Source: an uncultured Muribaculaceae bacterium | Lineage (GTDB): Bacteria; Pseudomonadota; Alphaproteobacteria; Rs-D84 | Reading direction: 5' to 3' | DNA length: 32,000 bases | NCBI GenBank assembly: GCA_965231035.1 | Contig: OZ246409.1 | Location: forward strand, 271,101-303,100 | Shown here: positions 2,522 through 32,000 of the stretch, piece after piece | How positions within the stretch are numbered: position 1 is the stretch's first letter | How the letters are laid out: every line of letters starts with the position of its first letter | Notes under the pieces: model-generated | What the model was told of the DNA's origin: nothing | Databases searched by the model: none | What the model saw: the letters and a program-made list of their open reading frames with translations, nothing else | Made by a program: the position numbers and the translations under genes

Positions 2522-2689
2522 TTTATTTCCTTTGGTTTAGTCAGCCGATGTTAATATAACACCAGCAGGAACACCCTTATTCTAGACAAATATTTGATAA
2601 AATCAAGCAAATAATCCCTATTGACTTATCGATTGTATTTTTACTATCATTTACAAAAGGCAGAGAGACTTAAAAAACGAGAGATTTTA

Positions 2690-3481
2690 ATGAGTAACCA
2701 GTTTCACAGATATCTTAACCGTATGGCATTGTTTGCAGCCTTGGTCACAGTTGGTGCTATTTTGTTTTATGATCAATTTTTGAAAATAGCCGTCACAAAC
2801 GTTTGGCTGAACGGTATAATTATTGGTACAACTATTTTTGGAATTGGGCTTTGTTTTACTGATATTTTCAAATTGTTGCCAGAATACAGATGGATGAAAA
2901 AATACTTTGGTGAAAACAAAAATGCGGATTTACCACCAAGATTGCTACGCCCGGTTGCCATGATTTTGCAACGCAGCGAACAGACCAAGGGTCCAATTTC
3001 TACCAATACCATCAGCAGCTTTTTGGATATAATTATCGGCCGTTTCGAAGATCAACGTGAATCCGTCAGATATATAACCAATACTTTGATATTTTTGGGA
3101 TTGTTGGGAACATTCTGGGGATTAATTCATACAGTTGGCGGGTTTGCAGCATTGGTTGGGAATTTGAATTTTGGTGATGAAAATATTATGAATACTTTGC
3201 AATCTGGAATTGCCAAACCGCTTGCTGGAATGGGAACAGCATTTACATGTTCTTTGTTCGGATTGGCAGGCAGCTTGGTTGTTGGATTTTTGGGATTACA
3301 AGTACAATTGGCCCAAAATTCAATATTTCGTGATTTGGAAGAAAACTTGTCTTCGCGTGCCAGAATGTTTGAATTGGATGAGGTAAAGGCTTTTGATGCT
3401 CTTCCCCAGATTAACTTGGCAACACGCGAATTATCACTAGCAGTTCAAAAACTGGAAAAATCAGTTTCAAAACTGACATAA
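2690..3481 (+). CDS. MotA/TolQ/ExbB-family proton-channel protein (non-flagellar context)
   Basis: I prefer the ATG at 2690 (MSNQFHRY, preceded by CGAGAGA) over the track TTG at 2621. There are multiple TM segments. The C-terminal motifs LGLLGTFWGLIHT and AKPLAGMGTAFTCSLFGLAGSLVVGF resemble the MotA/ExbB channel core. Confidence 0.7.
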   Translation: MSNQFHRYLNRMALFAALVTVGAILFYDQFLKIAVTNVWLNGIIIGTTIFGIGLCFTDIFKLLPEYRWMKKYFGENKNADLPPRLLRPVAMILQRSEQTKGPISTNTISSFLDIIIGRFEDQRESVRYITNTLIFLGLLGTFWGLIHTVGGFAALVGNLNFGDENIMNTLQSGIAKPLAGMGTAFTCSLFGLAGSLVVGFLGLQVQLAQNSIFRDLEENLSSRARMFELDEVKAFDALPQINLATRELSLAVQKLEKSVSKLT

Positions 3482-3507: not shown

Positions 3508-4725
3508 ATGCTGCATTTTCGTTTTCGTGAAAAAACTAATACTTGGCCCGGGTTCGTGGATTTATTTTCCAACCTGGTTATTATTCTTATTTTCTTGCTG
3601 ATTGTTTTTGTATTCTTGTGGACAACCACCAGTGTTTTTAACAAAAGTAGTGGATTGAAAACTGTTTCTGAATTAAGAAAAACAAACGAAGAACAAAGTC
3701 AGTCTTTGGCACAAATGTCAGCCGATGAACAAGAAGCCAAACGTCTGTTGGTTATGGCACGCAGTGAACTGGAAACTTTACAACAAAGCAAAACTGAATT
3801 AGAAGATAAGACAAACGATCTTCAGTCCAAGGCTTCTGATTTGCAAGAAAAAGCTGCTGACCTTGAAAGTGAAAAAGCAGATTTGCAGGATAAAATTAAT
3901 CAACTGAACTCTGAAATACAAAAAAGAGATACCGGCACACAAGAACTGGTTACGGCTTATGAAAGCAAGGTTTCAGATATGCAAGATTCTGAAAACAAAT
4001 TGCAAGATATGATTAATCAATTAAATACTCAACTGAACCAGGCAACTGTGGATAAACAAAAAACAGCCGAGCTGGAACAGCAACGTCGTGCACTGCAATC
4101 CGATTTAGAAGCTCAACGTATGGCATTATCTGATCAATTGTCAAAACTGCAGGCATCGTTGGACGCAGCCGAAGCAAAGTCACAAACCCAAGAAGTTCAA
4201 TATACTGAATTGTCGAATCGTTTAAACAAAGCATTGGCTGACAAGGTTGCAGAACTAAGCAAGGTTGGACAATACCAATCAGATTTTTATAAGGCTATCA
4301 AGTTGGCACTGGGCGACAGAACAACAATTAAACAAGAAGGTGACCGCTTTATAATTTCCAGTGATATTTTATTTTCCAGCGGCGAATATAATCTGTCACC
4401 AGAAGGTAAAAATCAATTGCGTCTGATTGCAAACGTAATCAAAGATATGGAAAATAAAATTCCAACAGATGTAAATTGGATTGTTCGTGTTGATGGTCAC
4501 ACAGATAAAACACCTGTAAATCCTGGAAATCATGCCTTTAAGAATAACACCCAACTTTCATTATTACGCGCAATTGCAGTTTCTGGTGAATTGGAAAAAG
4601 CAGGCGTTTCAAAACGCAGATTGGTTCCCAGTGGATTTGGCGAAATGTATCCAGTTGAATTGGGCACAGATGCAACCAGCCTGCAAAAGAATCGCAGAAT
4701 CGAACTGCGTTTAACCAACAGATAA
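3508..4725 (+). CDS. MotB/OmpA-family peptidoglycan-binding protein with ~200-aa central coiled coil
   Basis: The N-terminus WPGFVDLFSNLVIILIFLL is a MotB-like TM segment with a conserved Asp. The C-terminus RVDGHTDKTP...NTQLSLLRAIAVSGELEKAGV...NRRIELRL is OmpA-like. A strong RBS GAGAGAGAGGA lies upstream, 26 nt after the upstream gene. Confidence 0.8.
   Translation: MLHFRFREKTNTWPGFVDLFSNLVIILIFLLIVFVFLWTTTSVFNKSSGLKTVSELRKTNEEQSQSLAQMSADEQEAKRLLVMARSELETLQQSKTELEDKTNDLQSKASDLQEKAADLESEKADLQDKINQLNSEIQKRDTGTQELVTAYESKVSDMQDSENKLQDMINQLNTQLNQATVDKQKTAELEQQRRALQSDLEAQRMALSDQLSKLQASLDAAEAKSQTQEVQYTELSNRLNKALADKVAELSKVGQYQSDFYKAIKLALGDRTTIKQEGDRFIISSDILFSSGEYNLSPEGKNQLRLIANVIKDMENKIPTDVNWIVRVDGHTDKTPVNPGNHAFKNNTQLSLLRAIAVSGELEKAGVSKRRLVPSGFGEMYPVELGTDATSLQKNRRIELRLTNR
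3817..3921 (+). repeat. five tandem 21-nt (7-aa) repeats inside the MotB-like gene
   Basis: The peptide reads DLQSKAS DLQEKAA DLESEKA DLQDKIN QLNSEIQ. I verified that the GAT at 3817 encodes the first Asp. Confidence 0.75.
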
Positions 4726-7083: not shown

Positions 7084-9585
7084 TTACATAACGATATCTT
7101 CACATTTTGCTTCGGATGTTTCAGTCTTACAGCTGGTGTTTCTATTGTTATGGAACCAGCTTTTGCTGCCTGTTGTTTTGCAACTTTCTGTGATTGTTGT
7201 TGTGCAAATATGACAATTTCTGGTTTCACGACTGAATATTGCACTGACCTGTTTTGTCATTCCACCGCCACTTAATTTTGCACCACCCAAATATCCACCA
7301 TTGCTGAATGTCACACCACCAGCATGCATTACACCAGCCCCGCCTTTCATCAAATCTTCGGTTGTTAAACCAGATCCGACTTCGTAACTGATTGCATATG
7401 GTGGAGTCAAAGGAGTGCTGGCATTAACATCACCCAAACCACCTGCCCCACCGTTTTCTGCAATCTTTTGACACATGTATTGTGCCAAATCTGCAGAAGC
7501 ATTTTTGGTTGCAGATGATATTTCTTTATTCAATTTTGTATTATAATTATCTTGAGCTTTACGCAATGCAGCAACAGCAATTTGCATTTTAACCTGGTTC
7601 AGCAATTTTGGAAAACGTGCTGTGGTGACAGAACCGTCCTTACCATTTATCTGTGACAAATCACGTCCACTGACACAATATTGAATCTTAGGATCTTGTT
7701 CTATCATTTCAATCGTGCGATTAATAGTGCCAGAAATATTATTCAGTTCTTCTTCAACAGAAGACATTATTCCAGCAGCGTTTGGAATACTTGTATTATT
7801 TGATTTAACTTTTACCAAATAATCTTGGATACCAATTTGTCCAGGTTCTAACTTTGTTCCATCATCCAAAGTTTTACCACTGGAATCACCCATTTGTATA
7901 CTGCCAAATGAAATCATTCCTGTTACACGATATACATCACCATCTTTTTGAGAACGAATTGAACCCGTTCCAATTGTGTCATCGGCTGCGAATTTATTAC
8001 AATCTGTGGTGCTGCCACAAACCTCGGTCATTTTTTCATCAACCAGATTCTCGCAATTTTCCAATTCAGCATTATCAATATTCAAATACAATCCCATCAA
8101 CATTGAATCCAAATCATCCATTGAAAATGCTGGATTATTTGCTTTGCAAACAACCAATTTATCCAATGGGCAAATATCTTTTATGTAATTGTAATCCATA
8201 CCGATACAATTGCTGAAATCTTTGCCGCATCTTTCATCGGATGTAAAGCAATCTTTGACTTCTTGGGTACAAGCATCTACACGCATAGCAGCCAACTTGT
8301 CAGTTACATATCCCCATATCATTGGTTCCATTCTTTCACAAGTATCAATTTGAACCTTGCAGAAACTGCGTGCCATATCTGGTCTGGACAAGCAAGAATC
8401 CATTGTTGCTGTCCCTTTACCAACTATATCGTCTTTACATGCTTTTTGAATACAGCTGGAAATATCAGTTAAACAAGATTGACGCATTTTTGATTCTGCA
8501 TTTTGCTCGGCAAGTTTTATTGTTGGTGCGGCTTCACGTAAAAAATCGGGCCAAACATTGTCACGCACAACAACACATTGATCCAAAACTTTTTCACAAA
8601 TATTGCGTTTTGCTTCCAAAATTTCCATCGTAGAATCAGTTATGTCAAATTTAGATATAACATCTACTTTGGTACCAGCAGTACTGACGGCCTTGTTATT
8701 CTGCATATTTTCCGAAGCAATCGTAGAAACGCAATTTGCCCAATCTTTGCCACATGCGTCATCAGATTGCATACATTTTTTAAATTCAACCATACATGTT
8801 CCACGATCATACTTGTTTGCGGAATCAAAACTGCTTTTTAACGCCGCACGAACATCAGATTGTGCACTGGTCAAAATTTTGTCTGCATCAGCCTTTTTTG
8901 ATGCAACATCATTTGCAAATGCATTACAGTCAGAAACAATTTGTCTTGAATACATTTGTTGCAAGAACACAACATCTTTTGTACAAGAATCCGGCATCTT
9001 GGAAAGACAAAGATCATTCGCACCGGTATAAAGAGAGTTTCCAGTTTTATTGGCCAAATTATCAACTTCTTCTTCGAAAACATCTTGATCATCAGTTGAA
9101 GAATTAGATTCAAAAATAGCCATCAAATCTTTTTTCTTCTTTTCCTTGGTCTGTTCTGTTGATAATTCATCTACTGATATAACATTACCTTTTTCATCAT
9201 ATTCACGGGCACCATTAAAGATAATATCAGCCTGTGCCCCAGCCTTGATTTTTTCAACTTGAACTGTTTTCAAATTATCTGCATTTTCCAATTGCTTTTT
9301 TATATCAGCCAATTGTTTTTCATATTTTGCATTTTCATCACTGCACGAACAAGTTCCACCATTAGTATTATCAACATTACAAAACTGATCCATACATCCG
9401 TAATAAGTATCGTAACATTCTTGTGAATATAAACCAGTCGCCGCAACCTTAGCACGAACACTTGTTCCGCTTTGTATGACAGATTGCCCTTTGCTGGAAC
9501 GTGTTGCCACAGCAGATTCAGCTGTAAAATGCACCAAGCAAAACACAGATGTCAACAATCCAAAGCTTATAATTTTACGCATCAT
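7084..9585 (-). CDS. large secreted cysteine-rich protein, family member A (833 aa)
   Basis: Signal peptide MMRKIISFGLLTSVFCLVHFTA. Head motif ECYDTYYGCMDQFCNVDNTNGGTCSCS at 9340..9417. There are ~36 Cys in the mature part. RBS GGAGAGAG lies upstream, 23 bp after member B. It is clearly alignable to member B. Confidence 0.85.
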   Translation of the reverse strand: MMRKIISFGLLTSVFCLVHFTAESAVATRSSKGQSVIQSGTSVRAKVAATGLYSQECYDTYYGCMDQFCNVDNTNGGTCSCSDENAKYEKQLADIKKQLENADNLKTVQVEKIKAGAQADIIFNGAREYDEKGNVISVDELSTEQTKEKKKKDLMAIFESNSSTDDQDVFEEEVDNLANKTGNSLYTGANDLCLSKMPDSCTKDVVFLQQMYSRQIVSDCNAFANDVASKKADADKILTSAQSDVRAALKSSFDSANKYDRGTCMVEFKKCMQSDDACGKDWANCVSTIASENMQNNKAVSTAGTKVDVISKFDITDSTMEILEAKRNICEKVLDQCVVVRDNVWPDFLREAAPTIKLAEQNAESKMRQSCLTDISSCIQKACKDDIVGKGTATMDSCLSRPDMARSFCKVQIDTCERMEPMIWGYVTDKLAAMRVDACTQEVKDCFTSDERCGKDFSNCIGMDYNYIKDICPLDKLVVCKANNPAFSMDDLDSMLMGLYLNIDNAELENCENLVDEKMTEVCGSTTDCNKFAADDTIGTGSIRSQKDGDVYRVTGMISFGSIQMGDSSGKTLDDGTKLEPGQIGIQDYLVKVKSNNTSIPNAAGIMSSVEEELNNISGTINRTIEMIEQDPKIQYCVSGRDLSQINGKDGSVTTARFPKLLNQVKMQIAVAALRKAQDNYNTKLNKEISSATKNASADLAQYMCQKIAENGGAGGLGDVNASTPLTPPYAISYEVGSGLTTEDLMKGGAGVMHAGGVTFSNGGYLGGAKLSGGGMTKQVSAIFSRETRNCHICTTTITESCKTTGSKSWFHNNRNTSCKTETSEAKCEDIVM

Positions 9586-9608
9586 AATCTCTCTCCACCA
9601 AAGTGTTA

Positions 9609-11750
9609 TTACATATTAACGTCTTCACAAGAATCAACTTCTTGGCAAAATTCTTGAGTACCGCCAGATGCACGACCGCCAAAGAATCCACCAATCGCAC
9701 CGACTGCACCACCAATTGCTGTTCCCCACCCAGGCATAACCATTGTACCAGCCGCAGCACCAGCTGCCAATCCACCCCCAGCAGCCTTTAATCCAGATGT
9801 ATTTTTACTTTCGCCACCTTTTTCACAAACTTGTTGTGTGCGACATACATGACAATTTCTTAAAGACGGTTCAAAAGATACACTTTTTATATAACTGTAA
9901 TTTTTCTTTTTTTCGTCTGGCGTTTCTACCTTATAAGTCGAGGTACAATTTTTTTCTGCTTCTTCTAGGCTTTGAGCACGAGATAATTCTGCAATTTTTG
10001 ATTCCAATTGTTTCACAGCTCTGTTTTCTGCACCAATTTCAGCAATTAACTTTGCGGTACTGAACACAGTATCACCCATTGATTTACGACCAGTTGGCTT
10101 TTTACCGTCTTTGCAAGCAGTAACATTTTTATCATTTTCAAAATCAGTAAAGAAATTTTTAACTGCTGCATCCGCATTATCTATAACTTGCTGACGCAAG
10201 GCAACCATACCTTCTTCGGTATCTGGAACAGCATTCAATGCTGTTATTCTTGCATCATTTGGCAAACAGGACATATCTGTTCCACAAACCTTACCAAGTT
10301 TTTCTGCAAAATAATTTGTACAACTTTGCAACATTTGATAATCCATCTGCAACATAGCCGCCTGGAGAATTATATTAAATTGTGTTTCTTTCTTACATGA
10401 TGGGAACATAGACTGTGGACACAGCGCAGAAATTTCCGAAGATTTTTTACCTAAACATTCAGGAGCATCATAATTTTTACCACATCTATCCTGTAAACAT
10501 TTATCTATATCGTTTTCACAAAATTGAGTTTGTAAAAATCCAAGCTTATCACTGACAGAATTTTTTATACCCGGAATTATATCATTACATTCATCAATTA
10601 TTGGACATACGCCCGCAGCAACATTAATATCTGTCAAACAGGCAGAATCAGTGCCTGTTGAACAACCATCTTCCAGACAAGCCTGAATTTTTGCAAAACA
10701 AGTTGCACGGCGATTTTTATCCGCATATTTTGCAGCATCCTCTAAAACAGTCTTTGATTCAGCAGTCCAGTCTTGTATAACATAATCTTTGACCGCTGTG
10801 CATTGGTCCAAAACATTTTCACAAGCATTAGCACGACGAGCCAATAATTCTTCGTCCAGACAATTTTCAAAATCAGACCCGCATCCGCCCTTGTCTGATA
10901 TACAAGATTTATAAGCCAGCAAACATTCGCCACGATTATATTTGTTTGTTGTATCCAACATTTCCAATCTTGCCTTGCGGACAGCAGCCTCGGCAGTTGT
11001 TTTATTCGCACTGGCATCACGTTTTTGATCTGTCAGATAATTATTAAAATTTTTACAATCTTGAACAATTACACGCGAATAAAGCGTTTCTTCCATCCCA
11101 GCAGAATCACCGCAAGCCGCTAATTTTGAAGCACAATTATCAGTTGCAATTGCATATAAATTGTTACCAATATCATAATCTGAATTCAAAGCATCAGTGT
11201 CATCACTTGTTGTGCCAGAACTAATCCAATCCGCAAGACTTAAACCAGAAGCACGTGATGAACTTTTAGCCTTGTCACTTTCACCAAATACTAATTTTGC
11301 CTTGGCACCAAGTTTTTCGCGTTCAACACCTTCGGTATACATTTTTTCCGCGTCATTTTGTATTTTTTGAATTTCTTGTATTATCGGTTTTGCCTGATTT
11401 ATATTGTCAGAACAAGCACAACGGCTGCCTTCGGATTCATCTAATAAACAAAATTCATCCATACATTGACGATAATTATCTCGACAACTGTTTGCAGAAG
11501 AAGATGTTGTTGTCACACTTGTTTTTGTGTCTGATGATTTGCTGACAGTTGTTGTTACAGGTTCTGTAACAGTCGTTTGTGTATCTGAATCTGTAGTATT
11601 TTCAACAGATGTCGAAGCCCTGGTCATAACCTGAGATCGGGCCGCCGCCTGGGAAATACGATTAACCCCAACCCTTGCATCACTTCTATCTGCAGCAAAA
11701 ACAACACTTGGCAGAAAACAAACTGCGGTTAAAAATATTTTTAATTTCAT
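9609..11750 (-). CDS. large secreted cysteine-rich protein, family member B (713 aa from ATG 11750)
   Basis: I prefer ATG 11750 (MKLKIFLTAVCFLPSVVFA signal peptide) over the track TTG at 11810, which falls inside a predicted -35 box. An S/T-rich linker precedes the head motif SCRDNYRQCMDEFCLLDESEGSRCACS (11409..11486). A C-terminal glycine-zipper segment is present. Confidence 0.85.
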   Translation of the reverse strand: MKLKIFLTAVCFLPSVVFAADRSDARVGVNRISQAAARSQVMTRASTSVENTTDSDTQTTVTEPVTTTVSKSSDTKTSVTTTSSSANSCRDNYRQCMDEFCLLDESEGSRCACSDNINQAKPIIQEIQKIQNDAEKMYTEGVEREKLGAKAKLVFGESDKAKSSSRASGLSLADWISSGTTSDDTDALNSDYDIGNNLYAIATDNCASKLAACGDSAGMEETLYSRVIVQDCKNFNNYLTDQKRDASANKTTAEAAVRKARLEMLDTTNKYNRGECLLAYKSCISDKGGCGSDFENCLDEELLARRANACENVLDQCTAVKDYVIQDWTAESKTVLEDAAKYADKNRRATCFAKIQACLEDGCSTGTDSACLTDINVAAGVCPIIDECNDIIPGIKNSVSDKLGFLQTQFCENDIDKCLQDRCGKNYDAPECLGKKSSEISALCPQSMFPSCKKETQFNIILQAAMLQMDYQMLQSCTNYFAEKLGKVCGTDMSCLPNDARITALNAVPDTEEGMVALRQQVIDNADAAVKNFFTDFENDKNVTACKDGKKPTGRKSMGDTVFSTAKLIAEIGAENRAVKQLESKIAELSRAQSLEEAEKNCTSTYKVETPDEKKKNYSYIKSVSFEPSLRNCHVCRTQQVCEKGGESKNTSGLKAAGGGLAAGAAAGTMVMPGWGTAIGGAVGAIGGFFGGRASGGTQEFCQEVDSCEDVNM

Positions 11751-11781
11751 CAGACACCACCCTACATAGTCGTTGTATGTA

Positions 11782-11810
11782 ATTTTATCAAATGCTGGCT
11801 TCCCACGCAA
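11782..11810 (-). promoter_or_regulatory. candidate sigma70-type promoter for the B-A cysteine-rich operon
   Basis: The minus strand reads TTGCGT, a 17-nt spacer ending in TGA, then TAAAAT (extended -10 like). It lies ~30 nt upstream of ATG 11750. Confidence 0.45.
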
Positions 11811-11895
11811 GCAGATAAACGTATAAAAATACCTTGCTTTTTCAATTCATAGCTAATATCATCAAACTAGTATTTTGTTTACAAAAAGGTTATTT

Positions 11896-12144
11896 ATGGC
11901 AAAAGATGATGTAATTGTATTAAATGGTACAGTTGAAGATAAATTGCCGAACACGATGTTCCGCATAAAATTAGAAAATGGACACGATGTTCTGGCAACT
12001 GTTTGTGGAAAAATGCGTAAAGCACGCATTTGGGTTAACGTTGGTGAAAAGGTCCGTGTTGAAATGACCCCTTATGACTTAGACAAGGGTCGTATTACAT
12101 TTGTAGAAAGAACTGCAAAACCTGCCCCAACTGCACAACAATAA
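11896..12144 (+). CDS. infA: translation initiation factor IF-1
   Basis: [42 protein letters not shown]...[11 protein letters not shown] is canonical IF-1. I prefer ATG 11896 over the track TTG at 11875. Confidence 0.95.
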
Positions 12145-12148
12145 ATTT

Positions 12149-12173
12149 ATCCCGCGAACCGCGGGATTTTTTT
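12149..12173 (+). terminator. rho-independent terminator after infA
   Basis: 8-bp stem ATCCCGCG / CGCGGGAT with loop AAC, followed by TTTTTT. Confidence 0.85.
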
Positions 12174-12233
12174 GAAATTACAAATTATTTTCCTTGCCCT
12201 GATTTTCATATTTTTGCTAATATTTTACAGAGA

Positions 12234-14972
12234 ATGAAAAAGATTTGGTCTTTTGCTTTATGTTGCATTATCAGCATCAGTTTTGCTGACGCTTCGCAAC
12301 GCACAGAAACTTCTATAAATCGTGAACCAGTTTCAACTTCACAACGTACCGCAACTGTTCAAAAAGAATCTGCAAAAGTTAATTCCAGAACTGGTTCTGT
12401 ACGTGAGGTTTCGGTCAGAAACAGTTCTAATACATTGTCACGATCAGCTGTTACAACCCCCAGAAAAAACACTACAATTTCTGCAAGGTCGGCAACAACC
12501 ACAACAAAAGCAAGAACAACTGTTACCAGAAACGTCCCGGTTACAAAAAACAATCTGATATCCCGAACAACCACAACAACATCAGATTCAAAAACCTTTG
12601 GCAGTGGATATAACGCTTGCAGGGACTCTTATTTCACCTGTATGGATCAATTTTGTGCAAAACAAGATGAAACATATCAACGCTGTGCTTGTTCATCCAG
12701 ATTGGAAGAAATAAAAAGCAAAGAACGCGCACTTTCACAAACCAAGCAGCAATTACAAGATTTCAAGGATTTAAATATTGATTCAATATCCAAGACCAGG
12801 AACGAGGTCAAGGCTATGGTGAATGCCAGTGCTGGTGAATCCGCAACTGATAAATCAACTGATACTTCCAGCAGTTCGGAAAAATTATCAGGTATCAGTT
12901 CTGTATTAAGCAAGACAAAATCCGAATCTTTATCCACCCAAGGTAAATTAGATATTGCCGGTAATATAAATGCTATTTGGTCAACCACAGATTTGACTGC
13001 TGGTGCAGATATAATGAATTTAACCGGGGAAAAACTTTACAATGCTGTTCACGCCCAATGCGTTTCTTTTGCATCTGATTCTTGTGATTCTAAATCAACA
13101 TTAAATATGGTTGTTACTGCCTATGGAATGTATATTGAAAATGATTGCACAACACTTTCTAATTCTTTGGCAAAACAAACTACTAACGCATCCGGAAGTA
13201 TACGTGAAACAGAACAAGCAATGAACCAAGCCAGATTAGAAAATTATGATTCACATAATTCTACATCTATTAATGACTGTATATCAAACGTTCGCAAAGA
13301 TATAACTGCTGACTCTGCTTGTGGTAAAGATTATATTCACTGTTTGGACATAACTGGAAAATATCTTAACAGCGATACAGGAGAGCCTATATACAGCTCG
13401 GACTTTTATCAGTTAGAATTACAAACATCTTTATCAGGGGATATTTTAACAAACCAGACAAATAGGTTGCTTGTAAATGAGTTAAATAAAAAGAAAGAGT
13501 TCGTAACAAACGATTTATCCAAGTGTAGCGATTTGTCATCTGATGTGTGGGATGAATTTATGCGTCAAGCAATTACCGAAATATATCAAGGCCAGCAAGA
13601 AAGAATCCGAGAAGTTAAAAACGAATGTATTGATGTTGTTAACGATTGCTATGACACACAAAGCAAATCTTTGAAAGATTTTAGTAATGTAAAAGAACAG
13701 CTTTTGTTGGGATCAAGATTAGAATTATCTGAAGAAATGTGCAAAGAAAAACTTAATGCATGCAGCAATCTTTACGGTGGTGGTGAACCAGGACTAGAAG
13801 AACTTGTTACAACCATGCATAATATTACAGATCAGAAAATTGCTAAAGATTGCAAAACAACACTGGAAGATTATGCAAAAAGTATTTGTGCTGTACCATC
13901 CAGCGACATTGTCCATGGATACCCTTTTGCATGTCGCACATACGCACCAGGCGAACAAAAGTATGCCTCTATTTCGTCGTGTAATCTTGTATTTTCGACC
14001 GGAACTTTGAATGTTATTGATACCGGGTATACTGCTGGTGTTGATAATGGAACTGGAACTGTTAATTTCATTTGCAGAGATAACACAATTTATACAAATT
14101 GCAGTTATGGATATTACATGGCTTATTTAACCAATGGTTTTTACATTTATGACGGAACTCCAAAACCTGGTAATAAATGTCTAAAATGTCCTACACTTGC
14201 ATCTAATGGAACATCAGCGGTTAGTTACAATTGTAATGGTGGAACAGAAGCTCCTGCACAGATAACAAATGAAAATACAAGTAATGTTACATGTGGTGAT
14301 GATTATGTAGGAAGTTTGTATCAAAAAATTGTTAGATATGCATTACAGACCTGCACCAGACCTTCGGATTCTACAGAAGTTTTACCTTATGCAATTTTAG
14401 CCGATGTGAATGTTGTTATGGATTCAATAAAATCAGCAATGGGCACGCAGTTGTCCGATGAATGTGAACGTCTTGGTGGTATTTGGGTTAATACTCCAGG
14501 AAATAATGTATCTTCTGATAAAATATTAACATCATTTTATACCGAGACCAGTTCTAATAAAAAATGGGGGTATTGTTCTGTTACACCAGCCATAGTATGC
14601 CCAAAATTTTCCACTTCGGATTCCAGTTGTGTATCTACTGATTCATCGGGTGTATCTGGTGGTTGTGCAATAGCAAAATGCAGATGTGTTTCCGGAACAT
14701 ATTCAAATGGGTCTGGAGGATGTACGCCGGGTACATACAGTTGCCAAGGAGCCTGTGGTACCCAAAGAACGACATTTACTGCAAGTTCACAAACACCTGT
14801 TACAACAGCATGGACGGGCGGTGATAATTATAAGATACGTAGAAAATATAGTGTATTATGTTCCAATTGGATAACTGTAAGTGGGGGTACTTGCACTTCT
14901 GCTAATTTCACAGCTTATTACACTTCGTGTTTAAACGATAATAATTTCACTACGCTAGTAACTTGCGATTAG
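12234..14972 (+). CDS. large secreted cysteine-rich protein, family member C (912 aa)
   Basis: Signal peptide MKKIWSFALCCIISISFADA. A ~105-aa S/T/R-rich linker precedes the head motif ACRDSYFTCMDQFCAKQDETYQRCACS (12618..12698). About 40 Cys in total. The C-terminal third differs from members A and B. Confidence 0.85.
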   Translation: MKKIWSFALCCIISISFADASQRTETSINREPVSTSQRTATVQKESAKVNSRTGSVREVSVRNSSNTLSRSAVTTPRKNTTISARSATTTTKARTTVTRNVPVTKNNLISRTTTTTSDSKTFGSGYNACRDSYFTCMDQFCAKQDETYQRCACSSRLEEIKSKERALSQTKQQLQDFKDLNIDSISKTRNEVKAMVNASAGESATDKSTDTSSSSEKLSGISSVLSKTKSESLSTQGKLDIAGNINAIWSTTDLTAGADIMNLTGEKLYNAVHAQCVSFASDSCDSKSTLNMVVTAYGMYIENDCTTLSNSLAKQTTNASGSIRETEQAMNQARLENYDSHNSTSINDCISNVRKDITADSACGKDYIHCLDITGKYLNSDTGEPIYSSDFYQLELQTSLSGDILTNQTNRLLVNELNKKKEFVTNDLSKCSDLSSDVWDEFMRQAITEIYQGQQERIREVKNECIDVVNDCYDTQSKSLKDFSNVKEQLLLGSRLELSEEMCKEKLNACSNLYGGGEPGLEELVTTMHNITDQKIAKDCKTTLEDYAKSICAVPSSDIVHGYPFACRTYAPGEQKYASISSCNLVFSTGTLNVIDTGYTAGVDNGTGTVNFICRDNTIYTNCSYGYYMAYLTNGFYIYDGTPKPGNKCLKCPTLASNGTSAVSYNCNGGTEAPAQITNENTSNVTCGDDYVGSLYQKIVRYALQTCTRPSDSTEVLPYAILADVNVVMDSIKSAMGTQLSDECERLGGIWVNTPGNNVSSDKILTSFYTETSSNKKWGYCSVTPAIVCPKFSTSDSSCVSTDSSGVSGGCAIAKCRCVSGTYSNGSGGCTPGTYSCQGACGTQRTTFTASSQTPVTTAWTGGDNYKIRRKYSVLCSNWITVSGGTCTSANFTAYYTSCLNDNNFTTLVTCD

Positions 14973-15011
14973 TACAAAAATTTGATAGAATACAAAAAAC
15001 AGGTATAAATC

Positions 15012-15743
15012 ATGAAAAAATTATTTTATGCACCTTTATTTTCGCTAATTTTTTCTGCACACGCGGGTGCTTTATCTGCCCCAAGTGCAACCCCTTGGTG
15101 GCTGCAACCAACTATTTGTAAACCTAATACTACAAATTGTTATTCAAATATGGGCGCCGGGTATGATTCTGGTATGTGGGATGCAACAAGCAATTGCTGG
15201 GGATTGAAAAAAATTTGTGCCGAAGCTACAACTTCTACATCAGATGAAGATTATGTCGAAATGGGACGTGTTACAATTGCAAATGGTACAGGTATAAATT
15301 CTGACTTTGATACTACTGTTTTAAATGGTGATTGTTTTGGTGCAAGAAAAACAACTGCCAGCGGAACACTTGCTTCGGTTAGTGGAAGTTATGTTAATGT
15401 TTGGTGTAATGGGATTTTGGACAACCCAGGGGATACCGTTTCAAATGGTGAAATTCAAATTGGAACCCAACCAACATGCAAAGATTTGGCGGCAAATGGT
15501 TGGGTTGCTGTTTTGAATCAACGCTGTTATGGGAAATATTATGATCCTGAAAAATACTATATTGAGTGTGAAGGAACAAATCTGTTACCAAAAAGGATTA
15601 TTGTTCTGAATGGATCACAAAAGTTTACTGGAACTGGTTCTGCACCAAGTGCAAATTATCCTGTTGATGCAAATGCGGCGGATACTTTATTTGATAAAAT
15701 GTTTAATGTTTCAAATAATAAAAAATCAGACCATTTTAAGTAA
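15012..15743 (+). CDS. secreted cysteine-containing protein (243 aa), partner of member C
   Basis: Signal peptide MKKLFYAPLFSLIFSAHA and 9 Cys. It starts 39 bp after member C and is followed by a strong terminator. Confidence 0.7.
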   Translation: MKKLFYAPLFSLIFSAHAGALSAPSATPWWLQPTICKPNTTNCYSNMGAGYDSGMWDATSNCWGLKKICAEATTSTSDEDYVEMGRVTIANGTGINSDFDTTVLNGDCFGARKTTASGTLASVSGSYVNVWCNGILDNPGDTVSNGEIQIGTQPTCKDLAANGWVAVLNQRCYGKYYDPEKYYIECEGTNLLPKRIIVLNGSQKFTGTGSAPSANYPVDANAADTLFDKMFNVSNNKKSDHFK

Positions 15744-15750
15744 TACAAAT

Positions 15751-15781
15751 AAAAAACCGGAATTCTGATTCCGGTTTTTTT
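15751..15781. terminator. bidirectional terminator between the 15012..15743 ORF and clpX
   Basis: 9-bp stem AACCGGAAT / ATTCCGGTT with loop TCTG. It is flanked by an A-run and a T-run. Confidence 0.85.
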
Positions 15782-22875: not shown

Positions 22876-23976
22876 ATGAAAAAATATCTGAACAAGATTT
22901 TTGTTGGCGACTGTATTGAACAAATGCGCGGACTGCCTGACAGCAGCGTAGATGCCGTTTTTGCCGACTCTCCTTATAACTTACAACTGGGCGAAAAAAC
23001 ACTTTACAGACCCGAAGATCAAACCGCCGCACGTGCAGTTCGTGATTCTTGGGATTATTTTGAGTCAAATGCTGAATATGATAAATTTACACGTGAATGG
23101 ATGACCGAGTGTAAACGCGTATTAAAGCCAGATGGTGCAATGTGGGTTATTGGCAGTTATCATAATATTTTCAGGGTTGGCAGCATTTTGCAAGATTTGG
23201 GATTCTGGATTTTGAACGATATTGTTTGGGTTAAAAATAATCCTATGCCCAACTTTCGCGGGACTCGTTTCACAAACGCCCATGAAACTTTGATTTGGGC
23301 AACCCCGCACAAGACTGGAAAATATACTTTTAATTATGAAACCATGAAAAAACTGAATGGTGGTAAACAGATGCGTTCTGATTGGGATATAAATATTTGC
23401 TTGGGCGAAGAACGTGTCAAAGATGAAACCGGTAAAAGCCTGCACAACACCCAAAAACCCGAAGATTTATTAAAACGCGTAATTTTGTCTTCCACAAAAC
23501 CTGGGGATATTATTTTGGATCCATTTATGGGCAGTGGAACAACCGCAGCAGTTGCCAAAGAATTGGGTAGAAACTTTATTGGATTTGAACGCGAAGAATC
23601 TTATGTCACAGCTGCGCGTGAACGCGTTGATGCAGTTAAACCAATTGATTTGTCTGAAATAGAAGTATCCGCCCCAAAGCGTGATGAAATCCGTGTAGCC
23701 TTTAATGAATTAATTGAAGGTGGATTGCTGTATGTCGGTCAAACACTGGTCAGTCCACGTGGTGAACGTGTAATGATAACACGTGACGGACAATTGACAC
23801 ACAGTCTGTATGGCAAAGCATCAATTCACGTTATGGCAGCCAAAATACAGCGCAGTGCCAGCTTTAACGGATGGGATTATTGGAGTGCGATTAAAAAAGA
23901 CGGAACACTTGTCGCGATTGACGAACTTCGTAAATATATCCGCAACATAAAACGCGACATCAAAAAAGTTGCATAA
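22876..23976 (+). CDS. ccrM: CcrM-type N6-adenine DNA methyltransferase (GANTC family)
   Basis: FADSPYNLQL, WVIGSYHNIFRVGSILQDLGFWILNDIVWVKNNPMPNFRGTRFTNAHETLIWA and DPFMGSGTT. It also has the CcrM-specific C-terminal ~80-aa domain. Confidence 0.9.
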   Translation: MKKYLNKIFVGDCIEQMRGLPDSSVDAVFADSPYNLQLGEKTLYRPEDQTAARAVRDSWDYFESNAEYDKFTREWMTECKRVLKPDGAMWVIGSYHNIFRVGSILQDLGFWILNDIVWVKNNPMPNFRGTRFTNAHETLIWATPHKTGKYTFNYETMKKLNGGKQMRSDWDINICLGEERVKDETGKSLHNTQKPEDLLKRVILSSTKPGDIILDPFMGSGTTAAVAKELGRNFIGFEREESYVTAARERVDAVKPIDLSEIEVSAPKRDEIRVAFNELIEGGLLYVGQTLVSPRGERVMITRDGQLTHSLYGKASIHVMAAKIQRSASFNGWDYWSAIKKDGTLVAIDELRKYIRNIKRDIKKVA

Positions 23977-27527: not shown

Positions 27528-30500
27528 TTATATTCCCAACTTATGTGTCAGTTTTAACATAAATATGGATTCATTTCCAAATTCACTGATATTGTTTGGA
27601 TTGATGCGATAAATCATCCCCAGCGCACCATCTGTAAATGCCCCCAGCTTTACACGATAGCTTCCTGTGAATCTTAATTCTCGCTTTTCTGGTGACAGAC
27701 CCAAATCAGAAATATGGGTATCCCTTACAACCAGATCATATGTTCCATCTGAATTTTCAACAACATCATAATCTGCATAAGCATATTTCATATCACCCGA
27801 AGTAATTGCCAAAGGCATTGCGGCCGAGAATGAAAAATTATTTACATCTGCCCCAACTGAGAATGAATTTGATTTAATATCCGACAATCCCAATATGAAA
27901 TCACCATTTGGATTTGCACGTGTTTGTGCAAAAGTCGAACGAACTGAAAAATCAATATCCTTGGTCGGGCTGTATCTTGCAACAGTATCAACATATGTTG
28001 TATCACCCTGACCCAGTCCTAACAATCCGCCCGTTTGTGCACCCAATACTGTATTTGTTTCATGTGCAGTTCCGATTGCTGATGTAATTGCAAACTTTCC
28101 ATTACCCCATGTAACGTTTGTTTCACCACCCTGGATTAATCCCAGGTTTGCTGGCTGGTACTGACTGGTAACAGTTGGGTCATTTTGCAAAATAGATTCA
28201 TCTGTAATATTTCCCGAAAACGTACGTGCACCAAAAGACCAATTTCCTGATTTGTACTCGGCACCAGTTGAAACTATATTCGAAGCCAAAGATAAAACAG
28301 GATTCGCAGTACCGTCAAATCTGGAAACACCATCAGTAAAGTGACGCTGATAACCGGCGCTGAAATTAAAGTTACCGACACCATATCCAAATTGTAAATT
28401 ATCCAAACCACCCATATTATCAACATAAGCTTTTTCGGATACAGCCATTTGGAATGTTACATTACCCGATTTGAATTGTTTTGGATTTTCTTTGGTTGTT
28501 TGGAAACTTCCCAATACATCACCCATATAAAGCCCACGAACATCAGATGTACCCAGCGCAAATTCATTTTCCCAAACACGTGGCAATGACAACGTTCCAT
28601 CAGAACTTGTCAGAACATCATAAAATGGTGCACTTATTGATGCGGCACGTGGATTAAACACTGCAGATGATCTGAACAAAGTATTTGTTGCCGCACGCCA
28701 ATAACCATTTCCACTTGTTGATACTATTGAATCCCCATCATAGTAATAAACATTAGCTGTTGGTTTTGTTGCACGTTCAATATTAACCAATCCGTAACCA
28801 AACACTTCTTTGAAAACTTTCAAATAGTCTTCGCCACCTGAGTCAACACGATACTGGTATTCTGTTGGCAATTGATACATAGCCTGCAAATAAGTTTTCA
28901 ATGCCGAAACTGTCATAGCAGTCCCGGTTGTAGTTGTTGCCAAATAAGGACCATCAGCAGTCAAAGCCAACAAAGCAAACAATTGTTTGTTATTCAAATA
29001 ATCAAATGCGGATTTCACAGCACCAACCGCCCCAGCCATACTGGATACAGCCAATTCGTCTGTCAATCCTGCCGCAGAAAAACACCATGGATCAATTCCA
29101 TTTGCACCACTGCCCGCAATCCCACAAGCGCGTGATTTATAGTTTTTATCATCTAATGGATCAATTGTTCCCTGGGTATCGGTCCAAGTTGATAACGCAA
29201 TCTTGCCAGAAGGAACATAACCAGAAACGCTTGTTTGACCATTTGTGCCGGTACCATTCAATCCAACTGCAACAACCGACATAAATAAATGTTCCAAATT
29301 ACTGAAAACCAATGGTGCAGAATTTTCAAATGTCGCCGTTAATGTTTGTCCTGAATATGAGCTGTCTGTTTCTGCTGCACCAGTCGAGAATATTACCAAT
29401 GGTGCCCAATCGCGAAGCCCGTAGTTGTAAAAGAAATCAAAAAAGAGGCTAGCATCTGCACTTGGTAATACTGAGGTTCCATCATTCTCATAATACAAAT
29501 CAACATAATCAAAAAACTTATCCTTATAGTTAGTCGGGGTAGGAGTAACAGATAAAATATCACCAACTGTTTTTGCATCACGATCATGCAGTGGTGAAAT
29601 CACAGAAGCATTTGCAATAATATCCACTTTTGAACGACCTGTGCTTTCTTCTGGGTCAACTAATCCCGTTAAACCAATGGCATTCAACAATGCCTTGTAA
29701 TTCTTATAATCTATATTTCCCAGTTCTTTTGTCAAAGCCAAATCATTATCAGATTCAATCGTATAGGCCTTATCAACAGTACCATCGTCATCGCTGTCAA
29801 TGTATAATAAACCATCCAGACCCTTGTATCCTTTATAAGTATGTGTTCCGTCAGTTGCAGTAAATCCCAACCCAGATGAATCTTTTGCCACTGTCAAAGT
29901 ATAAGAAAACAGTGTCAAAGTATCACTGGATGACCAGCCACTGGTGCTGTTATCAGTATACACACCAGAAACTGTGCCTGCTGCGGCTTTCATACCTTTG
30001 CCACCACCAGTTCTGAAAATTGTCATCTGGCCATTTGGCATAAATCCAATATAGTCAGCAGATGAATAACCAGAATCCTTACCACCGACAACCTTGGCTA
30101 ATAAATCGTCTATATCTCTTGAAAAAGAATTATTTATAACCGTTCCATATCCAGCCAAGTCGAACGAATTTAGTGCTGCTGAACTTGAATCTTCTTCGGT
30201 CGAATCGTCCAATATTGAATCAGACTCTGACCCACGATTTATTTTATTATTATAATATTTGCTGGACATCATATTATTACTTGCAGATATCACGGCATTA
30301 TTATTTGTTTTGCTCCATAATAATAATCTATCTTCAAGTGAAGTATCTTGTTTCGCATTTATACCATTCTTTGTTATTATCGCAACATTTGTTGGGCGAC
30401 CACCCATAACAGAACCACCAGTCAAAGAACGACCTGAAAAACTTAGCGGTGCTTTTGATTCTGTGTTTCGCAATGTTCGCATACCCATATAACCACGTGC

Positions 30501-31265
30501 CAGCGCAGAATATCCATGCATCATCAATAAATAATTTTGTTTATACACATGATTTGTCGTATCCGTACTGGTACCGGTCATCAATGCGAAATTATCTTTT
30601 AAAATACCTGCGGTTGATGGGCTGTAATAATTCAAATTGTTTGTGTAATTCGCGGTTTCCGATGTCGCATTAGGCATAGCGGGACTGTAAGGTAATTGAA
30701 AAGACGCAGTTCCACCACCAGGCGTAACATTTGTACAATCACATGTGCCATCTGCTTTACATATTCCAACACTGGTAATTGAACAACGACATTGTTCACC
30801 CGAAACACATTTTGTATTATCTGTGCTGGTGGTATTACTATTTCCAGCAGATACAACATCCGTTAACATAAACAGTCCGCCAACAACAACGGCGGCCCCT
30901 GCCGCCGCCAACGCTATGCTTTGGGCAGAAGACAGCCCGCTGAACAATCCACCAGATTCTTCTTTTGGTAATTTGTTTTTATATTTTTTAATCTGATAAT
31001 CACACTTCGAAGCGTCTGCACCGTACATTTGTAAAATCTGTGCGGCACGAATATCATTATTCATCAATGCTGTGCAAACAACCGACAAGCCAGTATTATC
31101 AACATAGTTTATATCCGCACCATTATTAACCAGTGCTTGAACCTGCTGAACATCACCATTCTTTGCTGCGGCCAGCAACTGAGCTGCAACCTTGAAATTA
31201 TCCACTGCAAAAGCGGAAAATGGAACAAAAATCAAAGAAAACAACAATAATCTTATGTACTTCAT
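27528..31265 (-). CDS. ankyrin-repeat / subtilase-like autotransporter-type outer-membrane protein (1245 aa from ATG 31265)
   Basis: Signal peptide MKYIRLLLFSLIFVPFSAFA; the track start at 31298 adds 11 aa. Ankyrin-like repeats at 31008..31187. Subtilase-like end motifs are SSMAGAVGAV and FGYGLVNIERA (verified at 28800). The C-terminal ~300 aa shows an alternating beta-strand pattern (NFNFSAGYQ..., SFSVGADVNNFSFSAA...). Confidence 0.75.
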   Translation of the reverse strand: MKYIRLLLFSLIFVPFSAFAVDNFKVAAQLLAAAKNGDVQQVQALVNNGADINYVDNTGLSVVCTALMNNDIRAAQILQMYGADASKCDYQIKKYKNKLPKEESGGLFSGLSSAQSIALAAAGAAVVVGGLFMLTDVVSAGNSNTTSTDNTKCVSGEQCRCSITSVGICKADGTCDCTNVTPGGGTASFQLPYSPAMPNATSETANYTNNLNYYSPSTAGILKDNFALMTGTSTDTTNHVYKQNYLLMMHGYSALARGYMGMRTLRNTESKAPLSFSGRSLTGGSVMGGRPTNVAIITKNGINAKQDTSLEDRLLLWSKTNNNAVISASNNMMSSKYYNNKINRGSESDSILDDSTEEDSSSAALNSFDLAGYGTVINNSFSRDIDDLLAKVVGGKDSGYSSADYIGFMPNGQMTIFRTGGGKGMKAAAGTVSGVYTDNSTSGWSSSDTLTLFSYTLTVAKDSSGLGFTATDGTHTYKGYKGLDGLLYIDSDDDGTVDKAYTIESDNDLALTKELGNIDYKNYKALLNAIGLTGLVDPEESTGRSKVDIIANASVISPLHDRDAKTVGDILSVTPTPTNYKDKFFDYVDLYYENDGTSVLPSADASLFFDFFYNYGLRDWAPLVIFSTGAAETDSSYSGQTLTATFENSAPLVFSNLEHLFMSVVAVGLNGTGTNGQTSVSGYVPSGKIALSTWTDTQGTIDPLDDKNYKSRACGIAGSGANGIDPWCFSAAGLTDELAVSSMAGAVGAVKSAFDYLNNKQLFALLALTADGPYLATTTTGTAMTVSALKTYLQAMYQLPTEYQYRVDSGGEDYLKVFKEVFGYGLVNIERATKPTANVYYYDGDSIVSTSGNGYWRAATNTLFRSSAVFNPRAASISAPFYDVLTSSDGTLSLPRVWENEFALGTSDVRGLYMGDVLGSFQTTKENPKQFKSGNVTFQMAVSEKAYVDNMGGLDNLQFGYGVGNFNFSAGYQRHFTDGVSRFDGTANPVLSLASNIVSTGAEYKSGNWSFGARTFSGNITDESILQNDPTVTSQYQPANLGLIQGGETNVTWGNGKFAITSAIGTAHETNTVLGAQTGGLLGLGQGDTTYVDTVARYSPTKDIDFSVRSTFAQTRANPNGDFILGLSDIKSNSFSVGADVNNFSFSAAMPLAITSGDMKYAYADYDVVENSDGTYDLVVRDTHISDLGLSPEKRELRFTGSYRVKLGAFTDGALGMIYRINPNNISEFGNESIFMLKLTHKLGI

Positions 31266-31330
31266 GAAAACTCTCTCTGCTAGAGAAAATTTTAACATAA
31301 AAATGTCAAATCTGTCCAGCGGAAAAAATG

Positions 31331-31751: not shown

Positions 31752-32000
31752 ATGAATAAAAGTTTTGCCTTTTTCATATTTGCATTCAGCTTTGTATTTG
31801 CTGGTTTTTCTGCCGCAAGTGCTTCTTCGTGCTCGATTATGGATTTGAACAGATGTTTGGATTCAGCTTGCGGAATTAATATCAGCTTAAACCCCGGGGC
31901 ACGTTGTCAGCTTTGTGGAACTGCTCAGGCTGGTGCCGCTGATACAAAAGGATTCAAAAGTTTATCTGTTGGTGCATCAAACCGAAACACATTATCTGCA
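31752..32000 (+). CDS. secreted cysteine-rich protein, possible fourth family member (N-terminal 83 aa only, runs off the right edge)
   Basis: ATG 31752 is preceded by ACGAGAGAA. Signal peptide MNKSFAFFIFAFSFVFAGFSAASA. A relaxed head motif follows: CSIMDLNRCLDSACGINISLNPGARCQLC. The frame stays open to 32000. Confidence 0.6.
   Translation, partial: MNKSFAFFIFAFSFVFAGFSAASASSCSIMDLNRCLDSACGINISLNPGARCQLCGTAQAGAADTKGFKSLSVGASNRNTLSA

Follow-up and report, generated by a model that had tools for sequence, protein, structure and literature searches.

The window analyzed here, a stretch of 32,000 nucleotides from contig OZ246409.1 (assembly GCA_965231035.1; positions 271,101 to 303,100), derives from an alphaproteobacterium of the Rs-D84 lineage, whose members are uncultured anaerobes, widespread in the guts of humans, livestock, birds, and termites as well as in digesters. 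At the center of the analysis are 4 genes, denoted A to D, which lie on either side of the housekeeping gene infA and encode cysteine-rich proteins with predicted export signals (Table 1). An ORF (open reading frame) scan and 2 public gene calls bear out the gene positions given in an earlier note on this DNA, as well as the gaps of 23 bp between A and B and 39 bp between C and D. A longer ORF for B, starting with TTG at 11810, was rejected, as the ATG at 11750 is the start in both public gene calls and yields a canonical leader.

Table 1. Genes and other features of the A–D locus and of the 2 ends of the window.
Feature	Position in window	Strand	Details
Gene A	7084-9585	(-)	833 aa (amino acids); ORF scan and two public gene calls agree
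Gene B	9609-11750	(-)	713 aa; paralogue of A; ORF scan and two public gene calls agree
B/infA divergent control region	11751-11896	intergenic	Alignment of 73 intergenic regions
infA (translation initiation factor IF-1)	11897-12144	(+)	TIGR00008, E 1e-24; housekeeping gene
Intrinsic terminator-like hairpin after infA	12149-12167	(+)	Stem of 8 bp, 6 GC, then seven T
Gene C	12234-14972	(+)	912 aa; ORF scan and two public gene calls agree
Gene D	15012-15743	(+)	243 aa; ORF scan and two public gene calls agree
Bidirectional terminator-like hairpin	15751-15780	.	Between D and convergent clpX
DsbA-like thiol-disulfide oxidoreductase, membrane-anchored, first 103 codons	2-310	(-)	Full length 274 aa
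5' part of a further Cys-rich secreted relative	31752-32000	(+)	Full product 288 aa, 6.9% Cys

The earlier note had both gene pairs diverging from infA. This holds for B-A, whereas C-D follows infA on the same strand, behind a strong terminator-like hairpin, as a separate unit. Given the terminator-like hairpins after infA and after D, there are 3 transcription units, namely B-A, infA alone, and C-D; the proposed arrangement of B-A and C-D as 2 operons is probably right, with infA set apart by its own terminator. Several blocks of the B/infA control region are at least 80% conserved across 73 species; they include an inverted pair, GCAAG (11807-11811) and CTTGC (11833-11837), and TTTGATAAAAT upstream of B, which together may form a shared regulatory site. 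A promoter consensus scan did no better than shuffles, and neither Rfam families nor tRNA genes were detected when the window was scanned for them.

By inspection, all 4 proteins begin with the Sec signal peptides that the earlier note had recognized, each comprising a K/R-containing n-region, a hydrophobic core, and an AXA-type site, with no lipobox. Cleavage is predicted between AVA and T in A, VFA and A in B, SFA and D in C, and AHA and G in D, and the 4 leaders fit those of Sec-dependent substrates of signal peptidase I. Assignment to the lipoproteins was rejected on account of the missing lipobox and of the leader cysteines, which are poorly conserved (4% to 62%). The proteins contain 37 (A, 4.4%), 37 (B, 5.2%), 43 (C, 4.7%), and 9 (D, 3.7%) cysteines, of which 36, 36, 41, and 9, respectively, lie in the mature part. 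The cysteine-richness that had drawn attention to A, B, and C (4.4% to 5.2%) compares with 1.0% in the 18 other ORFs of the window (53 cysteines in 5243 residues).

A, B, and C had been aligned block by block in the earlier note, which named a comparison with composition-matched shuffles as a check. Smith–Waterman z scores against 100 such shuffles were 70 for A/B, 33 for A/C, and 29 for B/C, and composition-adjusted BLASTP gave E values of 3e-57 (A/B, 29% identity over 475 aa), 2e-21 (A/C), and 9e-18 (B/C), marking the 3 proteins as true paralogues. The grouping of all 4 proteins does not extend to D, which is small, beta-rich, and outside the A/B/C family: its z scores against A, B, and C are 1.6 to 2.2, and in profile–profile comparisons with the A and C families the alignment is confined to the signal peptides. 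The possibility that D is a diverged fragment of the A/B/C family was rejected on these grounds. The comparisons hence define 2 protein families, A/B/C and a separate one, D, which is known only in this lineage. The core shared by A, B, and C consists of the head motif C-x6-C-x4-C-x9-C-x-C and of 1 or 2 C-x6-C-x6-C-x6-C modules, typically of the form C-G-x-D-(F/W/Y)-x-x-C; among 150 family representatives, the head motif is found in 140 and the module in 113. A and B also share an invariant C-terminal C-E-D-(I/V)-x-M-COOH, present in 80 of 81 A orthologues and 77 of 78 B orthologues and encoded here as CEDIVM (A, 7084-7101) and CEDVNM (B, 9609-9626). A C-terminal Met occurs in 36 of the 150 representatives (24%), and we know of no sorting signal to which the shared ending corresponds.

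Following the signal peptide, A comprises a mainly alpha-helical core (residues ~55-530), a helical middle part, a Gly-rich stretch (712-780), and a small Cys-containing beta tail. In its low-confidence AlphaFold2 model, A is consistently helical: helices run for 50 to 58 residues, and a small beta unit lies at the C-terminus. In B, the signal peptide is followed by a variable Thr/Ser-rich linker (~40-88), a Cys-rich helical core as in A, and a C-terminal Gly-zipper-like hydrophobic segment (~655-690), the GxxxG-rich part of which was seen by eye just ahead of the CEDVNM ending. C is built from a signal peptide, an Arg/Ser/Thr-rich N-terminal region (21-128), and the helical core of the family (129 to ~580). 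An insert that varies (581-680) separates this core from a further conserved region (681-781), and the protein closes with a tail that is rich in cysteine and lineage-specific (782-912). Conservation profiles show cores of A and B that reach a majority fraction of 0.8 to 0.96, with no hypervariable regions, and place the variable stretches of C at 21-120, 581-680, and 782-912. The N-terminal region of C (window 12300-12620) has a low-complexity look, yet contains fixed Arg residues (R23, R30, R111, and others) that are invariant or nearly so in 46 orthologues; Arg-containing stretches directly follow the signal peptide also in A, B, and a 520-aa paralogue. D consists of a signal peptide, a beta-rich core (45-165) that holds its 9 invariant cysteines, and a C-terminal helix; the core is predicted confidently (pLDDT [predicted local distance difference test] 85-96 over 45-165).

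Searches for known families agree with the earlier note, which recognized no named domain in the motifs. Pfam and NCBIfam returned nothing below E 0.1 for A–D and nothing significant for 33 family members plus 8 neighboring orphan proteins. The best matches, MG280 (E 0.0037, in 5 of the 33 members) and DUF2664 (E 0.11), fall far short of curated cut-offs and were judged to be noise. The A/B/C profile matched no PDB sequence at E ≤1, and Foldseek found no PDB match below E 1 for the model of A; for that of D, neither the best PDB match (E 2) nor the best BFVD match (E 0.08, an adenovirus fibre with a template modelling [TM] score of 0.12) is credible. All named homologues of A, C, and D are annotated as hypothetical proteins. 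The same is true of the named ones among 10 distant cluster representatives, which are hypothetical proteins of Proteobacteria metagenome-assembled genomes (MAGs), save for a 52-aa fragment labelled excinuclease ABC subunit B. We found no description of A–D in the literature on Enterousia, Rs-D84, or CX6C, in keeping with the view of the earlier note that these exported Cys-rich proteins are undescribed. The general kind, Cys-rich exported envelope proteins, is already known; both families, their motifs, and their predicted folds are absent from Pfam, NCBIfam, and PDB.

Proteins identical to A–D occur in the Alphaproteobacteria MAG GCA_035352695.1 and in anaerobic-digester metagenomes. Relatives of A with 60% to 81% identity are encoded by MAGs labelled Candidatus Enterousia, Alphaproteobacteria, or "Rickettsiales," with chicken, ruminant, roe-deer, horse, and rabbit samples among the sources. 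Homologues number >1500 for A, 831 for C, and 241 for D, and the A/B/C profile retrieved 873 clusters (50% identity) among 1.8 billion representatives and 522 loci among GTDB species representatives. Comparisons between loci were based on the best 80 of these 522, all from Rs-D84/Enterousia-type MAGs. The order D-C-infA-B-A is intact in ~70 of the 80, whereas clpX, thyA, and the genes for the OmpA-like protein and the DEAD-box helicase change position between loci. Identity to the window protein is 60% to 81% for A, 54% to 71% for B, and ~50% for C and D; the corresponding ranges for the neighbors are 77% to 87% for ClpX and 51% to 77% for the OmpA-like protein. A and B are single-copy orthologues at a fixed position in ~80 species. 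D does not stand beside C in 3 loci (L074, L079, and L080), and a second, diverged D copy (38% to 39% identical) is found ~10 kb off in 4 (L037, L051, L056, and L063). The GC content of the block is 0.35 to 0.39, within the range of the window (0.31 to 0.41). A horizontally acquired island was rejected, given a base composition matching that of the flanks and the retained synteny. By gene order and composition, the block belongs to the ancestral, conserved core genome of Rs-D84, and the word "island" in the earlier note therefore does not apply.

The cysteines are more telling than their number alone. In orthologue alignments of 67 to 81 sequences per protein, all mature cysteine columns of A (36/36), B (36/36), and D (9/9) are 98% to 100% conserved, the mean identity of the non-cysteine columns being 64%, 62%, and 47%, respectively (46% to 64% over all 4 proteins). 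In C, 29 cysteines at residues 129-781 are conserved at ≥93%, and the tail (782-912) has another 12 that occur in this lineage only. The mature cysteine number is even in 76 of 81 orthologues of A and 71 of 78 of B, and odd in 65 of 70 of C and 64 of 67 of D. Because C stays odd although its count ranges from 27 to 41, changing in steps of 2, the cysteines of its variable parts appear to come and go in pairs. Invariant cysteines in combination with this parity pattern are what disulfide pairing predicts; parity would leave 1 unpaired cysteine in C and 1 in D, and the even counts of A and B suggest mainly intramolecular bonds. The DsbA-like gene at the left end of the window, the CPYC site of which lies just beyond the edge, lies ~10 kb or less from the block in at least 28 related loci, and its product is the likely oxidant for A–D. 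At the sequence level, A–D thus look like DsbA substrates: their cysteines are conserved and come and go two at a time, an oxidase of the DsbA type is encoded nearby, and disulfide bonds are predicted. The invariant cysteines, the parity pattern, and the conserved nearby DsbA-like gene make a disulfide-based envelope or surface role the most reasonable reading, and to this extent the surface or periplasmic disulfide system proposed in the earlier note stands. In full, we hold it to be on balance probable that A–D are Sec-exported, disulfide-stapled structural proteins of the Rs-D84 cell envelope or surface.

Cysteines this strongly conserved might instead bind metal, as invariant cysteines are typical of metal sites too, and an anoxic, reducing habitat disfavours disulfides. 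A–D would then be metal-binding or redox-active periplasmic proteins that use their cysteines for zinc, iron, iron–sulfur, or haem, or for thiol or metal storage or buffering. A single C-H-(I/V)-C motif, followed by T or R, is common to A and B near the C-terminus and would suit such a function. The spacing and the numbers nevertheless tell against it: C-x6-C on a helix suits the pinning of one helix to another rather than chelation, the cysteine number of C moves in steps of 2 as expected of disulfide pairs, and A and B contain only 1 CxxC each. No Pfam metal-binding or cytochrome family was matched by A–D or the 33 members, and a DsbA-type oxidase is retained in a genome of under 1 Mb. Haem proteins, multihaem c-type cytochromes included, were rejected, since the CxxCH haem motif is absent from A–D. 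We consider a metal-binding or redox role very improbable.

A second alternative keeps the disulfides and places them between molecules, in a redox-switchable lattice of the chlamydial type that would stiffen when the cell leaves the anoxic gut and loosen on its return. The chlamydial outer membrane complex is believed to owe mechanical stability to its cysteines, and OmcB and OmcA resemble A–D as Sec-exported, unusually Cys-rich envelope proteins of a reduced-genome, host-dependent bacterium, a setting that Rs-D84, with its reduced genome and probable host dependence, would share. The 1 unpaired conserved cysteine in each of C and D would be available for cross-linking, whereas the even counts of A and B suggest that these proteins spend all their cysteines on internal bonds. 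No similarity links A–D to OmcA or OmcB: A–D and the 33 members lack Pfam and NCBIfam matches, the A/B/C profile lacks a PDB sequence match, and A is mainly alpha-helical in its weak model. Rs-D84 has, moreover, kept its peptidoglycan machinery, unlike the chlamydial case: the window encodes an SLT lytic transglycosylase and an OmpA-domain protein, and RodA, MreB, and MrdA have been reported for the Rs-D84 order (PMC12306168). A cross-linked lattice of this kind appears to us highly doubtful.

The third alternative concerns the target of the proteins rather than their chemistry. As effectors or adhesins directed at a partner or a host, A–D would leave the cell or sit on its surface and bind a host structure, with disulfides serving only for stability outside the cell. 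Such a role would suit a lineage that has been proposed to be an obligate symbiont or parasite drawing metabolites from other cells (PMC12306168). The variable segments and lineage-specific Cys-rich tail of C, the compact, Cys-knotted beta domain predicted for D, which is of a size typical of binding modules, and the many further orphan secreted Cys-rich proteins in the genome would all be accommodated. A and B, however, are conserved like housekeeping envelope proteins, to a degree comparable to that of the OmpA-like neighbor (58% to 81% identity versus 51% to 77%), and lack hypervariable regions, an uncommon trait in effectors that face a host; A–D have no dedicated secretion system encoded next to them, and the synteny with infA is ancient and fixed. 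The related suggestion of the earlier note, a variable adhesin family analogous to the variant-specific surface proteins (VSPs) of Giardia, fails for A and B because these are single-copy orthologues with conserved cores in ~80 species, variability being confined to the 3 stretches of C. VSPs are likewise exported and high in cysteine, but they are CXXC-rich, multi-copy, and antigenically switching. An effector or adhesin role for A–D is rather unlikely in our estimation, and each of the 3 alternatives fits fewer observations than does a disulfide-stapled envelope or surface structure.

Other known systems offer partial parallels. The Hcp proteins of Helicobacter (Sel1-like repeat proteins) are secreted and alpha-helical, with regularly spaced cysteine pairs bridging adjacent helices; A, B, and C, at 713 to 912 aa, are far larger, are not simple 36-residue repeats, and gave no Sel1/TPR-type match at E ≤1 in 33 members. 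The cysteine spacing of Hcp also differs from C-x6-C. In the mitochondrial intermembrane space, twin-Cx9C (CHCH) and twin-Cx3C proteins form a helix-loop-helix with 2 disulfides, have a fixed helical cysteine spacing, and are oxidised outside the cytoplasm, a pattern which the presumed pairing in A/B/C would resemble; the spacing in A/B/C is instead Cx6C, several modules lie within very large proteins, and Pfam gave no CHCH match for A–D or the 33 members. Finally, B and several neighboring orphans have GxxxG-rich hydrophobic segments that could insert in a membrane, as in Gly-zipper outer-membrane proteins (Rickettsia 17-kDa antigen, YMGG-type), but they make up little of each protein, and Pfam matches are only sub-threshold, such as Gly-zipper_YMGG (E 0.032) in a 682-aa paralogue.

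A disulfide-stapled envelope or surface assembly might be formed as follows. After export, the periplasmic DsbA-type oxidoreductase would staple A–D by many disulfides, approximately 18 apiece in A and B, some 14 in the part of C that is conserved, and 4 in D. The A/B/C core would consist of long alpha-helices bundled together and pinned at regular intervals by cysteines, those of the head motif and of the C-x6-C-x6-C-x6-C modules, the latter forming helix-loop-helix units. A and B, presumably co-transcribed, equally conserved, and sharing the CED(I/V)xM ending, would constitute the conserved base of the assembly, with the Gly-zipper segment holding B in a membrane. C and D, likewise co-transcribed, would make up a more exposed, more variable, and faster-evolving distal part, C combining the family core with variable regions. 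Given the 1 unpaired cysteine in each, C and D could be joined by an intermolecular disulfide. We infer here the formation of the disulfides themselves, the location of the proteins, the A–B and C–D pairings, and the structural or attachment role.

Several observations weigh against this scheme. AlphaFold2 yielded a weak model of A (pLDDT 59; predicted TM score 0.30), the Gly-zipper of B is without significant Pfam support (Bacteriocin_IIc, E 0.4), and Pfam, NCBIfam, PDB, and Foldseek provide no homology-based functional anchor for A–D. In the 3 loci without D beside C, the cysteine number of C is still odd, which weakens the case for a C–D disulfide unless D is encoded elsewhere; second D copies do exist in some loci. 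Anoxic, reducing habitats might not let exposed disulfides survive. The respiratory chain is reportedly lacking and, with it, presumably the quinones used by DsbB, so that a route for the re-oxidation of DsbA is hard to see.

Further exported proteins are encoded nearby. The partial ORF at 31752, which the earlier note had listed as a possible family member, is the start of a real relative, and this gene opens a second cluster of orphan secreted proteins, which continues beyond the window, past 32000 (L083, 1-9547). The cluster contains an operon with products of 288, 520, 198, and 455 aa, a 682-aa protein (3.2% Cys, with Gly-zipper segments), and a 925-aa paralogue of A (39% identity over 493 aa); Pfam detected no domain in any of its proteins. 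The products of 288, 520, 682, and 925 aa are orphan, Cys-rich, and secreted, and related genomes encode more such proteins, which makes the A–D block part of a larger uncharacterised exported repertoire. Rs-D84 genomes have been reported to encode many hypothetical membrane proteins, possibly mediating cell-cell interaction (PMC12306168).

Elsewhere in the window, the gene at 2621-3481(+) has a weak MotA/ExbB-type match (E 0.0025) and the product of the adjacent one at 3508-4725(+), 405 aa long, has a membrane segment at its N-terminus and a peptidoglycan-binding domain of the OmpA type. The two resemble a MotA/MotB-type stator pair, in a lineage reportedly without flagella, and the OmpA-like gene adjoins gene A in many related loci. 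At 27528-31298(-), a 1256-aa exported protein has 1 N-terminal ankyrin repeat pair, the only Pfam match being Ank, and a long unannotated body, the last ~300 residues of which look by eye like an outer-membrane beta-barrel (autotransporter-like). The gene at 22876-23976(+) encodes an N6/N4 DNA methyltransferase with a RAMA domain, apparently with no adjoining restriction partner, which we take to resemble CcrM, the alphaproteobacterial cell-cycle methylase.

Rs-D84 bacteria are described as having genomes of under 1 Mb, no respiratory chain, and a probable dependence on a partner organism (PMC12306168). The block accounts for ~1% of such a genome, and every sampled species has kept it; it is therefore likely to be central to building the cell or to holding on to the partner. 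A bolder proposition, which we regard as a fairly long stretch, is that A–D form the core of a hitherto unseen envelope or attachment structure that defines Rs-D84, with 2 new folds and dozens of disulfides in a strict anaerobe without a respiratory chain, and possibly with 2 interchangeable states, oxidised and rigid when the cell is outside the gut, reduced and relaxed when it is inside. If this were true, the cell would need an unknown means of driving oxidative protein folding. The A/B/C and D families would be good targets for new family models and structure determination, and the block offers a test case of how an anaerobe without a respiratory chain forms and keeps many extracytoplasmic disulfides.

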